Positions 1 to 9,504 of a stretch of DNA of 64,000 bases are shown here, piece by piece; the first letter of the stretch is position 1; every line of letters starts with the position of its first letter. The notes under the pieces are model-generated. The model was not told where the DNA came from. It was given only the letters and a program-made list of their open reading frames with translations, and made no database searches. The stretch is taken from NCBI RefSeq assembly GCF_988243305.1, contig NZ_OZ547136.1; one strand, given 5' to 3'. The position numbers and the translations under genes were made by a program.

Positions 1-15
1 CAAAGGAGGTTCGAC

Positions 16-309
16 ATGAAAGTTCAGGCCGTTGGTTTATTCTGGTTTCGCGATGCGATTCAGTATCATGAGCTCAAAAATATTTTTACTGATGCTGATG
101 TGCTCTCCGACAGTTACACCGAGTGGAAACACGACGCTGAAAAATTGATTAAGCGTGTCGAAAGAAGCGGGCAACGAGTTATTAAAGTTGAAGCGGATAC
201 AGCCGAGTTCATCACCTGGTGTACAAGCGAAGGCATTGGAATCAATGCCGAAGGTAGAATGCAGTTCGCATCCTTTAAGGCTTACCAACAACTTCTCAGC
301 GAACGCTAA
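16..309 (+). CDS. Hypothetical prophage protein (97 aa)
   Basis: ORF with strong SD (AAAGGAGG) 7 nt upstream of ATG; hairpin 312-343 downstream; an antisense ORF 37-369 is an alternative. Confidence 0.4.
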   Translation: MKVQAVGLFWFRDAIQYHELKNIFTDADVLSDSYTEWKHDAEKLIKRVERSGQRVIKVEADTAEFITWCTSEGIGINAEGRMQFASFKAYQQLLSER

Positions 310-379
310 TGTGATTGGGGCAATCGAAATGGTTGCCCCATCGTATTTAATAGTTATTTTTTCGCTCATATCACCACCA

Positions 380-652
380 TCACTTCTCGTCCTCTGTGTG
401 CGCTAAGCTTGGATTTGAAATTTTGCGTAACGAATCAGGAATTCCATCTTCAGGGTGAGGATAAAGATCTGGCCTTAAGCCATGTGGCGTGACCTTCCAT
501 GCAACTACTTCACATACGCGTAAAACGAAACGAGCAGGAATTGTGTTTTTTGAAAACCACTGATTCACCGCTTGCGGCGTCACACCAAGATTTCGCGCTA
601 TGGCATTTTGCGCAATTAATGCACGAAGTTTGTCGTAATCATTTCCTTCCAT
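380..652 (-). CDS. Cro-like HTH DNA-binding protein (90 aa)
   Basis: HTH segment (NLGVTPQAVNQWFS); divergent from the CI-like repressor gene. Confidence 0.6.
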   Translation of the reverse strand: MEGNDYDKLRALIAQNAIARNLGVTPQAVNQWFSKNTIPARFVLRVCEVVAWKVTPHGLRPDLYPHPEDGIPDSLRKISNPSLAHTEDEK

Positions 653-785
653 AACAAAGCACCAATATTAACTTTATAAATCAAGAATACATCAAGTTTA
701 AATTAACATGCAAGTTACAAAAGGATCGAATACACTAAAATCAAGTAAAGATTTATCCTTGTAAAGAAACCCACAGGATTTGGTC
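653..785. promoter_or_regulatory. Divergent promoter/operator region between cro-like and cI-like genes
   Basis: AT-rich 130 bp intergenic region with repeated ATCAAG-containing motifs (678-685, 689-696, 738-745). Confidence 0.4.
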
Positions 786-1475
786 ATGAAGAACGTCAAA
801 AACACGGAAAATCGAATAGCCGCGATGCTGAAAGCAAAAGGATGGACTCAGGCTCAACTGGCCCGCAAGTTAGGTGTGAGTGCGCAATCAGTGCAGTACT
901 GGACAACAGGAAAAACATTTCCACGGAGTGATAAGCTCGCGCATTTATCAGAGATTAGCGGTTATCCACAATCCTGGTTCTTAGGTGAAGACTCCTCACC
1001 AACCTTTTCCTCGCAAGAGAAACACCAGACAAGAACAGATAGCGTCGTATTTAATGTCCTTGATGTTGAGTTTAGTTGCGGTGATGGAACTCATGTCCGT
1101 GGTGACTTGATAGATGTAGTGCGCTCAATAGAACTTGATCCTGAATATGCCCGACGTCTTGTTGGAAATCGGGCATTCAAAAATATAGAAATAGGTAACG
1201 CCAGAGGAGACAGTATGGCTCCCACAATCTCACCTGGCGACCTTCTTTTTCTTGATAAGACAGTAACTTATTTTGATGGCGATGGTATTTATGCATTTTG
1301 TTTTGATGGAGAATGCTACGTGAAAAGGCTTCAAAAAATTGGAAGCAAAATCATGGTGTTATCTGATAACCCCAATTATCAACCATGGAGCATCGAAAAA
1401 GAGGGGTTAGCTCTGCTTTATATCCAGTCTAAAGTGATCTCATCAGTACCATTCAACATAAACAGATTTGGTTAG
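786..1475 (+). CDS. CI-like phage repressor, HTH plus S24 LexA-like peptidase domain
   Basis: N-terminal HTH (TQAQLARKLGVSAQSVQYW), C-terminal GDSMAPT serine motif and later Lys; ATG at 786 preferred over TTG at 780. Confidence 0.8.
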   Translation: MKNVKNTENRIAAMLKAKGWTQAQLARKLGVSAQSVQYWTTGKTFPRSDKLAHLSEISGYPQSWFLGEDSSPTFSSQEKHQTRTDSVVFNVLDVEFSCGDGTHVRGDLIDVVRSIELDPEYARRLVGNRAFKNIEIGNARGDSMAPTISPGDLLFLDKTVTYFDGDGIYAFCFDGECYVKRLQKIGSKIMVLSDNPNYQPWSIEKEGLALLYIQSKVISSVPFNINRFG

Positions 1476-1486
1476 TCTTTGATTTT

Positions 1487-1510
1487 AACGGGCTTTGCCC
1501 GTTTTTTTCT
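1487..1510 (+). terminator. Rho-independent terminator after repressor gene
   Basis: Hairpin CGGGC-TTTG-CCCG followed by TTTTTTT. Confidence 0.5.
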
Positions 1511-6745: not shown

Positions 6746-6988
6746 ATGTTCGCTTTGATTCAACGCGGTCAGATATACACGGACAGAGCCGGATACCCCG
6801 TGGTGATTACTCGCATCACTGAGCACTCAGTGTTCTTTCGACGGATGGACGGACGATCCGGGCGGGTACGCATTGGTGAGTTAAACTGCCTGTTCGAACA
6901 TATTGACCACCAGGAGTACCGCAAAATTCTCGCGGACACTGAGCAGGAAAAGCACCTGAAAAAATTACGAGCCATAAAAAGGAAGTAA
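6746..6988 (+). CDS. Hypothetical prophage protein (80 aa)
   Basis: ORF, basic C-terminus. Confidence 0.45.
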   Translation: MFALIQRGQIYTDRAGYPVVITRITEHSVFFRRMDGRSGRVRIGELNCLFEHIDHQEYRKILADTEQEKHLKKLRAIKRK

Positions 6989-7146
6989 AGAATGAATAAA
7001 GCATTTGAACGATGGGTCCACCAGCGTTACGGCAATCGCTATGACCTGACGCGAGATGTTGACGGCTTCTACTGTCGTGAAGTTGTGAAGCGAATGTTTG
7101 AAGTGTGGTGCCACTGCCGTGGGCTGAGTGTTGTGTGAGGTAATAC

Positions 7147-7383
7147 ATGGGCAATGTGATTCAACTGGCTCCCAATGAATGGGTTTGTGAAAGCGTTCTT
7201 ATCGCAATTACCGGGCTCAAACCAGGCACAATTCTTCGGGCCCGGAAAGAATGCTGGATGGTTGGAAGAGAGTATATTCACGTATCACCAGACGGTAATC
7301 CAAAGCCTTCCAGTGAATGTATGTATAACAGAAAAGCAATAGATGCCTGGGTCGCCTCAATGAAAAACAAACAACCCAGGTGA
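7147..7383 (+). CDS. xis: Excisionase-like protein
   Basis: 78-aa protein immediately upstream of integrase; resembles excisionase family as I recall it. Confidence 0.6.
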   Translation: MGNVIQLAPNEWVCESVLIAITGLKPGTILRARKECWMVGREYIHVSPDGNPKPSSECMYNRKAIDAWVASMKNKQPR

Positions 7384-7438
7384 TTTAATATCATGAAATA
7401 TGTAAGCTCGTATCGCTCTTGGGCGTCTGGAGGTATCG

Positions 7439-8752
7439 ATGGATAAAGTCAAATATCCAACAGGCGTCGAAAACCACGGCGGCACATTACGCATCTGGTT
7501 TAATTTTAACGGTAAACGTGTCAGGGAAAATCTTGGTGTCCCTGACACTGCCAAGAACAGGAAGATCGCCGGGGAACTGCGGACATCAGTATGTTTTGCC
7601 ATCCGCACAGGAAGCTTTGATTATGCTGCACAGTTCCCTGACTCCCCCAACCTTCAGGCTTTTGGGGTAAGTAAAAAAGAAATTACGGTGAAGGAACTTG
7701 AAGAAAAGTGGCTGGATCTGAAACGAATGGAAATCTCTGCAAATGCATTCAATCGCTATGAATCCGTTGCAAGAACGATGGTTCCGAAAATTGGAGGCAG
7801 TAGACTGGTGTCATCGGTAACCAAAGAGGAATTGCTGTATATCAGGAAAGATTTGCTTACCGGGTATCAGAATTCAACGAAAAACAAAGCAGCAGCAAAA
7901 GGACGGAGCGTCGTTACTGTAAATTATTACATGACGACAATCGCTGGAATGTTTCAGTTTGCTGCAGATCACGGTTACTTAGAAGCAAATCCCTTCCAGG
8001 GAATTAAGCCTCTTAAAAGAGCCAGGGCAGAGCCAGATCCGCTAACTCGTGACGAATTTATTCGCCTGATAGATGCTTGCCGACATCAGCAGACGAAAAA
8101 CCTGTGGTCATTGGCTGTGTACACAGGAATGCGTCACGGTGAACTGGTCTCCCTGGCCTGGGAAGATATCGATCTGAAGGCAGGAACAATTACCATCAGG
8201 CGCAATTATACGAAACTTGGTGAGTTCACTCTACCGAAAACTGAAGCAAGCACAAACAGGGTTGTGCACCTTATCCAGCCCGCTATCAGTGTCCTGAAAA
8301 ATCAGGCTGAAATGACAAGACTGGGTAAGCAGTACAACATCAAGGTGCAACTACGTGAATATGGACGTTCAGTGAACCATGAATGTACTTTCGTGTTTAA
8401 CCCTCAAGTGGTTAGAAAAAGCGAACAGGTAGGTTTTGTCTACAAAGTCGATTCTGTAGGTGACTCATGGGAAACAGCCATTAAGCGTGCAGGGATCAGG
8501 CATCGAAAGGCATACCAGTCACGACACACTTATGCGTGCTGGTCATTATCTGCCGGAGCAAACCCAAGCTTCATTGCCAGCCAGATGGGCCATGCAAGTG
8601 CCCAGATGGTATTCAATGTATACGGAGCATGGATGACTGACAGCAATGCAGAACAGATCGCAATGCTGAATCAGAAGCTGACAGATTATGTCCCAATGAT
8701 GCCCCATAGTCACCAAAGTGACACCAGAGGCTTATTAAAATCAGTAAGTTAA
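7439..8752 (+). CDS. int: Tyrosine-type phage integrase
   Basis: 437-aa ORF with conserved C-terminal catalytic region (HxxR ... Y) and position adjacent to host junction. Confidence 0.85.
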   Translation: MDKVKYPTGVENHGGTLRIWFNFNGKRVRENLGVPDTAKNRKIAGELRTSVCFAIRTGSFDYAAQFPDSPNLQAFGVSKKEITVKELEEKWLDLKRMEISANAFNRYESVARTMVPKIGGSRLVSSVTKEELLYIRKDLLTGYQNSTKNKAAAKGRSVVTVNYYMTTIAGMFQFAADHGYLEANPFQGIKPLKRARAEPDPLTRDEFIRLIDACRHQQTKNLWSLAVYTGMRHGELVSLAWEDIDLKAGTITIRRNYTKLGEFTLPKTEASTNRVVHLIQPAISVLKNQAEMTRLGKQYNIKVQLREYGRSVNHECTFVFNPQVVRKSEQVGFVYKVDSVGDSWETAIKRAGIRHRKAYQSRHTYACWSLSAGANPSFIASQMGHASAQMVFNVYGAWMTDSNAEQIAMLNQKLTDYVPMMPHSHQSDTRGLLKSVS

Positions 8753-8772
8753 TCCTTAATACCCGTCATGTT

Positions 8773-9504
8773 AACTGTGTGGAGGGCAACACCACGCTTT
8801 ACGCCCTGCCGAAATCCGAGGTTGTCCTGCGCTGGCGTGAGCAGACCACAGATAATTTTCGCTTCTGTTTTAAGTTTCCGGCGACCATTTCGCATCAGGC
8901 AGCATTACGGCATTGCGATGATTTAGTAACTGAATTTTTGACTCGCATGTCACCGTTAGCGCCGCGCATTGGGCAATACTGGCTGCAACTGCCTGCCACA
9001 TTTGGCCCACGGGATCTGCCTGCGCTTTGGCATTTTCTCGACTCTCTTCCCGGCGAGTTTAATTATGGTGTGGAAGTTCGCCATCCACAGTTTTTCGCCA
9101 AAGGGGAAGAGGAACAAACACTTAATCGCGGTTTACATCAGCGCGGCGTTAATCGGGTGATTTTAGACAGCCGCCCGGTTCATGCAGCACGTCCACACAG
9201 TGAAGCTATTCGCGACGCTCAACGAAAAAAACCTAAGGTTCCGGTACATGCTGTACTGACGGCGACAAATCCGCTGATCCGTTTTATCGGTAGTGATGAT
9301 ATGACGCAAAACCGGGAATTATTTCAGGTCTGGTTACAAAAATTAGCGCAGTGGCATCAGACCACTACGCCTTATCTTTTTTTACATACGCCAGATATTG
9401 CCCAGGCCCCGGAACTGGTACATACCCTGTGGGAAGACTTACGTAAAACGCTTCCAGAGATCGGAGCAGTTCCGGCTATTCCACAGCAATCTTCTCTTTT
9501 CTGA
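8773..9504 (+). pseudogene. yecE: yecE (DUF72) 3' portion; 5' end displaced by prophage
   Basis: Translation matches YecE from about residue 30 onward (EGNTTLYALPK...) as I recall it; upstream sequence is phage. Confidence 0.7.

Follow-up and report, generated by a model that had tools for sequence, protein, structure and literature searches.

The first 8,781 positions of the window, a stretch of 64,000 nucleotides from contig NZ_OZ547136.1 (NCBI RefSeq assembly GCF_988243305.1), very probably represent the integrase-proximal end of a lambdoid temperate phage that is integrated site-specifically at its normal attachment site in the host gene yecE. Phage DNA spans positions 1 to 8752 with nearly all genes on the plus strand, as judged from the list of open reading frames (ORFs) and PHROG searches, and the guanine-plus-cytosine content of this arm is mostly 40 to 47%, whereas the host DNA that follows has about 50%. 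Both the type of element, a yecE prophage, and its site are already known, and near-identical copies of this one are public; with its junction present in about 1 of every 11 complete Escherichia coli genomes, the finding is real but not new. Three features meet at the junction (protein lengths here and below are in amino acids, aa).

7439 to 8752, plus strand: tyrosine integrase gene (int) of the phiP27 (yecE-targeting) type, 437 aa, identified with Pfam and PHROG; stop codon at 8750 to 8752.
8771 to 8781, plus strand: attachment (att) core at the int-proximal prophage/host junction, TTAACTGTGTG, equivalent to nucleotides 86 to 96 (of 819) of K-12 yecE, codons F29 to V32.
8779 to 9504, plus strand: remainder of host yecE, codons 32 to 272 (241 codons), cut off from codons 1 to 31 of the gene and from yecD.

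When the window junction is set against the empty K-12 site and the left junction of the yecE prophage in S4, all three give the same core. The record of phage phiP27 (AJ298298) annotates an 11-bp attL, TTAACTGCGTG, directly after int, and the window core TTAACTGTGTG is the same sequence except for the polymorphic position 8778. In the alignment of the window with the yecD-yecE region of K-12, patchy similarity to yecE appears from 8759 and uninterrupted host-type sequence from 8771 (TTAACTGtGTGGAGGGCAAC...). The core begins 18 bp past the int stop codon, and host-only sequence starts at 8782 (codon E33). An earlier note, made from the letters of this DNA, had the integrase ending 21 bp before yecE resumes at about residue 30, which the alignment with K-12 confirms to within 3 bp; the core interval suggested there, 8753 to 8775, should be corrected to 8771 to 8781, and this is where the att core belongs in the annotation. 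The C/T difference at 8778 is a synonymous polymorphism of Cys31. Either base is found among unoccupied yecE genes, which makes this position useless for placing the crossover, and a reading of the T as a phage-derived crossover marker was rejected as undecidable.

The reciprocal junction is found in S4, where yecD and yecE codons 1 to 32, ending in TTTAACTGCGTG, are followed by phage DNA (ATACGGAATTTTT...), a DinI-like gene, and tail fiber genes; its core, TTAACTGCGTG, lies at L004:11155-11166. Compared via S4, the att core and the other junction agree, the core being located there beside yecD and the 5' part of yecE and differing only at the polymorphic position 8778. Together with the position of the core at nucleotides 86 to 96 of yecE, this bears out the view that the prophage displaces the yecE 5' end. 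Because the S4 junction holds yecD and yecE codons 1 to 32, the missing 5' end and its link to yecD sit a whole prophage length away from the remainder of the gene.

The integrase combines an N-terminal arm-type DNA-binding domain (Arm-DNA-bind_2, Pfam ID PF12167; residues 7 to 70, E value 4.7e-23) with a catalytic Phage_integrase domain (PF00589; residues 202 to 395, E value 1.2e-17) and matches the PHROG family phrog_1 (E value 9e-87). It is closely related to phiP27 Int, with which it shares 416 of 436 residues (95.4%), and is 99.8% identical to the Int of phage PhiR49_2. Identity is 84.9% with the integrase of phage CharmingMan, about 78% with those of several Klebsiella phages, 76.7% with those of the O145:H28 Shiga toxin (Stx) phages, and 24% with lambda Int. 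The predicted catalytic residues are R232 (TGMRHGEL), R362 (SRHT), H385 (MGH), and Y395 (NVYGAW), with either K259 or K267 as the catalytic Lys; invariant columns support part of this assignment, which is a motif reading only because MAFFT misaligned the lambda C terminus.

An attP site was rebuilt by joining the int-side arm of the window to the far arm of the S4 prophage. It contains five copies of TGCCCCA in one orientation, one of them 71 bp before the core (window positions 8699 to 8705) and the other four 139 to 186 bp past it, against a background of 0.11 per kb in the window on both strands. The copy before the core lies within a 17-mer that has a near-identical counterpart among the other four, and the motif is kept in a diverged O145 Stx phage. 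These copies are plausible arm-type Int sites.

8690 to 8706, plus strand: candidate arm-type Int-binding site, GTCCCAATGATGCCCCA, inside the 3' coding end of int.

Farther to the left, the arm contains an immunity module and the early-left operon. Its order is divergent cro and cI with the right operator (OR) between them, a terminator, the left promoter and operator (pL/OL), early genes, xis, and int, as in the layout of lambda.

380 to 652, minus strand: Cro-like helix-turn-helix (HTH) regulator, 90 aa, pointing away from cI; phrog_35, transcriptional repressor, E value 6.9e-20.
653 to 779, no strand: cro-cI intergenic region with putative OR operators; ATCAAG half-sites at about 680 to 750 and repeats in common with the region 3' of cI.
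780 to 1475, plus strand: repressor of the CI type, with an HTH at the N terminus and an S24 (LexA-like) self-cleavage domain at the C terminus; phrog_4, E value 4.7e-54, and phrog_6201, "CI-like repressor".
1487 to 1503 plus a T run, plus strand: putative terminator hairpin 3' of cI, from reading of the sequence.
1539 to 1567, plus strand: putative pL-like promoter from a consensus scan, near consensus, with TTGACA at 1539, 17 nt, and TAATAT ending at 1567.
1527 to 1542 and 1574 to 1590, plus strand: two operator-like palindromes, ATCAA-N7-TTGA(T), from repeat analysis, predicted to flank the pL-like promoter.
7147 to 7383, plus strand: excisionase (xis), 78 aa; phrog_539, excisionase, E value 5.1e-40; Pfam DUF1233 on an identical protein.

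Proteins identical to the Cro-like regulator and to CI have Pfam matches to YdaS_toxin (precomputed; a Cro-type HTH family) and to HTH_3 plus Peptidase_S24, respectively. Gene callers place the cI start in related loci at 786, giving a protein of 229 aa, and the excisionase is annotated as such in S4, PhiR49_2, and phiP27. The half-sites of the palindromes around the putative pL recur in the cro-cI spacer; these repeats and the consensus matches suggest the pL/OL and OR assignments. The arm thus shows the features of a lambdoid phage, a divergent cI/cro module with its putative operators followed by a leftward early operon that ends in xis-int. Gene content, gene order, and the predicted pL/OL and OR anatomy agree with the description in the earlier note of the visible part as the immunity and early-left arm only.

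The spread of this junction was assessed with a 400-bp probe centered on it and counted at a coverage of at least 80%. The probe detects the int|yecE junction in 506 of 5,426 complete E. coli genomes (about 9%), and a 77-nt probe finds the uninterrupted yecE site in 4,788 of them. With so many genomes sharing the junction, a resemblance by chance is excluded. The best complete-genome match of the arm has 99.1% identity at 93% coverage. The host flank from 9505 to 34000 (yecN to cheA) is fully syntenic, with a best identity of 98.5% among the same 5,426 genomes, and its best matches are mostly human isolates not labeled STEC (E. coli strains that produce Shiga toxin). The window strain belongs to a lineage, or has a recombinant segment, with poor representation in the set of complete genomes. 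In NZ_CM148361.1, the yecE homology starts only at the equivalent of window position 8816, next to an annotated phage bet gene, which may indicate a different prophage at a second yecE position.

The exact Cro variant of the window was found in two assemblies, an ENA scaffold (L020) and GCA_012251085.1 (L021). Each aligns colinearly and without gaps to window positions 1 to 10652, at 99.68% identity overall. In the phage part, L020 differs from the window at one base (4257) in 8,777, versus 33 of 1,875 bases (about 1.8%) in the host DNA, where position 8778, within the att core, is the very first to differ. The unequal divergence suggests that one phage was recently acquired at one site by different host lineages and so favors a phage that has been mobile in recent times.

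To the left of the segment shared with the window, L020 and L021 encode two Rha-type regulators, IstB/DnaC-like and DnaB-like replication proteins, a DUF968 protein, Q, and an NmpC/Lc-type porin, the exact protein of which is carried by 17,488 blocks; stx is absent from these 9.6 kb. Full-length prophages with this arm occupy yecE in S4 and NMBU_W05E18. The S4 prophage, about 48.5 kb in size, shares the arm at 99.1% identity and has a late region with Q, RusA, a DNA methyltransferase, tRNA-Ile/Arg/Arg, a lysis cassette, and lambda-like head and tail genes. The yecE prophage of NMBU_W05E18 encodes QuuD, a porin, tRNAs, a SASA-family esterase, a holin, and lambda-like structural proteins. PhiR49_2, deposited as a 41-kb phage genome, has HK97-like head genes. 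Q-type antitermination, a lysis cassette, and lambda- or HK97-type morphogenesis genes are found in all the relatives that share the arm, and stx is absent from S4, PhiR49_2, and NMBU_W05E18, including the region that matches the Q-lysis interval. With HK97-like head genes in PhiR49_2 and lambda-like ones in S4 and NMBU_W05E18, the late region is not predictable from the arm. Late regions on this type of arm are mosaic: they are lambda-like or HK97-like, a gene for a porin, methylase, or esterase may be present or absent, and phiP27 has stx2e; the toxin status can therefore be read from the late region only, and not from the integrase or the site.

Several observations weigh against the assignment of the arm to a lambdoid phage at its normal site. 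An N-type antiterminator was not recognized in the arm with PHROG or NCBIfam, and the term lambdoid therefore rests on the layout and on the relatives, with their Q and their lambda-like or HK97-like morphogenesis genes. Neither the second junction nor the late genes fall inside the window, the visible part being the int-side arm only. Searches of complete genomes and GTDB representatives and exact-protein look-ups gave no exact genome match with which to extend the window leftward, and an exact 40-mer with a window-specific single-nucleotide polymorphism had 0 matches in the GTDB representative genomes. In the integrase family of the window, the HxxR box has Tyr (Y359) in place of its first His, a feature in common with phiP27 and the O145 phages, both of which are documented at the yecE site. 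Finally, an accessory ea22-like gene (4454 to 5139) is frameshifted. This frameshift and the mere 8.8 kb of visible phage DNA would fit a defective remnant, truncated to the left of the window by a deletion or an insertion sequence (IS) and capable of neither excision nor particle formation, as would the pseudogenes in relatives (in NMBU_W05E18, an internal stop in the DUF968 gene and a transposase fragment; in S4, partial coding sequences [CDSs]). A remnant is nevertheless unlikely: cI, cro, xis, and int each have their full length, at least 9.6 kb of further sequence in the colinear L020 and L021 holds replication genes, Q, and the porin gene in intact form, and the arm is 99.99% identical to its counterpart in a host lineage with 1.8% divergence, a contrast that speaks for horizontal spread in recent times.

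It is highly improbable that the unseen part makes the prophage Stx-converting, as in phiP27 or the O145:H28 yecE phages. The att site and the integrase family are those of the Stx2e phage phiP27, the site is also that of Stx1a, Stx2a, and Stx2d phages (PMC8112680), and the late layout of NMBU_W05E18, with Q, tRNAs, a SASA esterase, and a holin, resembles that of Stx phages. However, the closest relatives examined, S4, PhiR49_2, NMBU_W05E18, and (up to 9.6 kb to the left, with the porin gene after Q) L020 and L021, all lack stx, phiP27 matches only 39% of the arm at 88.7% identity, and the best matches of the host flank are mostly human isolates not labeled STEC. The warning in the earlier note about relevant cargo in the unseen part is legitimate all the same. 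There is a slim chance that the late region carries notable cargo, such as stx, in the Q-tRNA-holin moron slot, or that read-through from int yields a truncated or chimeric YecE, in which case integration would be a gene swap rather than a knockout. Hardly conceivable is a truncation of yecE by some other deletion or rearrangement, unrelated to integration, with the prophage end adjoining it by coincidence. Nothing specific speaks for it except the second junction being outside the window, whereas the break falls exactly on the annotated 11-bp core of phiP27, the reciprocal junction with the same core is found in S4, the junction is common to 506 genomes, and the host divergence from L020 starts exactly at the core.

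Site-specific integration in yecE fits what has been described for other phages at this locus. In the passages of two reviews (PMC8065619 and PMC3491183) that cite the phiP27 paper (Recktenwald and Schmidt 2002), yecE figures as a classical insertion site of Stx phages. In O145:H28 strains, the yecE locus harbors Stx1a, Stx2a, and Stx2d phages as well as non-Stx phages (Nakamura et al. 2021; PMC8112680), and the phages of this group are also able to use a yecE-like attB inside another prophage. The statement in the earlier note that yecE serves as an attachment site for lambdoid phages, including toxin-converting ones, is accordingly well founded, in view of the phiP27 Int and att, the O145:H28 phages, and the review PMC8065619.

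The Stx2e phage phiP27 (AJ298298/NC_003356) has, besides the related Int, an adjoining excisionase, the att TTAACTGCGTG, the yecE site, and the same int-xis-early genes-repressor layout. It differs in the repressor/cro module and most early-left genes and in carrying stx2e, whereas no toxin gene is visible in the window arm or the nearest relatives. PhiR49_2 (host ECOR13; PV340570) is 99.4% identical at the nucleotide level over 80% of the arm, with identical or near-identical cI, HTH, xis, and int proteins, and its record ends at the core of the window; unlike the window, it lacks the counterparts of positions 1 to 391 (the ORF for a 97-aa protein and part of cro) and about 4497 to 6133 (the ea22 region and a 171-aa gene). 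None of the papers searched mentions PhiR49. The O145:H28 phages (LC5678xx; PMC8112680) occupy the same position in yecE, with a junction alignment that is identical from the core onward, and have a related integrase of the same domain layout and part of the immunity/early region at 83 to 93% nucleotide identity. They differ in the more distant Int, in carrying stx, and in a 21-bp att, according to the authors. Lambda shares the layout from cro and cI through pL/OL, the early-left genes, xis, and int to att, a tyrosine integrase with an arm-binding N-terminal domain, and the S24 self-cleavage domain of CI. However, its att site is in the gal-bio intergenic region and not inside yecE, its Int has Arm-DNA-bind_1 in place of Arm-DNA-bind_2, and N, rexAB, and the red genes were not recognized in the window arm. 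With yecE documented as a lambdoid/Stx phage site since the phiP27 report in 2002 and an almost base-identical arm already public, the significance of the present prophage lies mostly in annotation.

The remainder of yecE encodes a protein that is 95% identical to K-12 YecE and covers positions 32 to 272 of the 272 positions of the NCBIfam YecE equivalog NF007637 (475.7 bits versus a cutoff of 412). As yecD and yecE overlap by 4 bp in K-12, integration takes away the yecE start and its upstream context. The Pfam domain DUF72 spans residues 21 to 249 of the intact protein, so that the fragment is devoid of the N-terminal part of this domain. A 241-codon rest without the first 31 residues and without the translation start coupled to yecD suggests that YecE is most probably inactive in the lysogen. 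The yecE frame is open on the phage side from 8722 (stop codon at 8719 to 8721) and resembles codons 26 to 31 there (TRHVNC versus ARHFNC), but it contains no ATG, GTG, or TTG between 8722 and the GTG at 8779, and no Shine-Dalgarno sequence precedes this GTG. A functional chimeric YecE was considered and rated unlikely, given the lack of a canonical in-frame start and of a Shine-Dalgarno sequence, the loss of the first 31 residues, and a DUF72 that begins at residue 21. In relatives, the Prokaryotic Genome Annotation Pipeline (PGAP) draws a 256-aa DUF72 CDS from an ATT in the 3' end of int across the core (L001:28516-29286, equivalent to window positions 8734 to 9504). Such a CDS is probably artefactual, a product of choosing the start by homology in a gene that has lost its 5' end, and the yecE ORF downstream of the core is best annotated as a 5'-truncated remnant.

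These features suggest a mechanism in which a recombinase of the lambda Int type, with an N-terminal arm-binding domain, would have joined attP and attB over the 11-bp core TTAACTG(C/T)GTG at nucleotides 86 to 96 of yecE, thereby splitting the host gene. The visible product is phage DNA, the core, and yecE codons 33 to 272. The other product, expected off the left edge of the window, would consist of yecD, yecE codons 1 to 32, the core, and phage DNA, with CACTTTAACTG(C/T)GTG set against phage DNA of the ATACGG type. In the lysogen, CI (780 to 1475) would repress pL (about 1539 to 1567) and the right promoter, pR, via operators that share ATCAAG half-sites. The window's copy may be inducible, in that CI, cleaving itself by means of the S24 domain upon SOS induction, would free the early-left operon for expression, whose last genes, xis and int, would lead to excision.

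The other genes of the arm lie to the left of cro or within the early-left operon. Between the HTH gene that begins this operon and xis, there are about a dozen small genes in phage families without known function, including two ead/Ea22-like genes and genes for DUF4752 and DUF4222 proteins.

16 to 309, plus strand: phage ORF of unknown function, 97 aa; phrog_4753, E value 1.8e-49; located between the off-window Rha-type regulators and the cro-like gene.
1621 to 2166, plus strand: HTH (XRE-type) protein, 181 aa, first gene of the early-left operon; phrog_4836, E value 2.1e-78.
2298 to 2663, 2858 to 3046, and 3052 to 3633, plus strand: small early-left ORFs; PHROG 5451, 340, and 1515, respectively.
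3602 to 3892 (winged HTH/MarR-like), 3882 to 4199 (DUF4752), and 4129 to 4467, plus strand: small early-left ORFs; PHROG 1687, 667, and 3126, respectively.
4454 to 5139, plus strand: ead/Ea22-like gene, frameshifted; phrog_368 and alignment with locus L007.
5136 to 5621, plus strand: second ead/Ea22-like gene, 161 aa; phrog_368/250; an identical protein in L011/L020 matches Pfam Ead_Ea22.
5623 to 6138 (171 aa, phrog_9263), 6135 to 6320, and 6317 to 6661, plus strand: small early-left ORFs with PHROG matches.
6746 to 6988 (DUF4222) and 6992 to 7138, plus strand: small early-left ORFs with PHROG matches.

The exact 97-aa protein is found in every related yecE prophage compared; among the matches listed in the exact-protein look-up, there are ten loci, none of them identical to the window. 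The product of 1621 to 2166 has a below-cutoff match to the NCBIfam DicA-like HTH family. Its gene holds the position that N has in lambda, and L10 of phiP27 is a homologue. An antisense ORF of 86 aa (2057 to 2317, minus strand) overlaps the end of this gene and is called as a gene in several related prophages (L007, L008, L010, and L021). Relative to the intact 228-aa homologue in L007, the first ead/Ea22-like gene has lost 1 nt from a run of T (about 4526 to 4529); because L020 and L021 show the same split, it is a feature of the lineage and not a read error. No defence system was found in the visible arm with PADLOC, the matches being generic HTH-domain similarities only; this includes the six ORFs from 2298 to 4467, and the five ORFs from 5623 to 7138 have neither an NCBIfam nor a PADLOC assignment. 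The visible arm has no toxin gene, and no Rfam family reaches its gathering threshold in window positions 1 to 12000.

In the host DNA, differences from K-12 comprise the absence of the yecV/yecT segment between argS and flhE, of IS1H upstream of flhDC, and of a 134-bp stretch after cmoB. The sites of these differences in the window are 18957 to 18997, 34923 to 34930, and 11706 to 11710, and they reflect ordinary strain-to-strain variation. Synteny with K-12 ends inside dcyD. The sequence from about 54,420 to the window end (64000) belongs to a Mu-like transposable prophage, of which it forms the right end, and encodes Mom, Com, a Gin-type invertase, tail fiber and assembly proteins, and baseplate J, gp46, and V proteins. 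Copies of this end that are 100% identical are found at unrelated loci of other E. coli, such as the diguanylate cyclase gene of PO06021.

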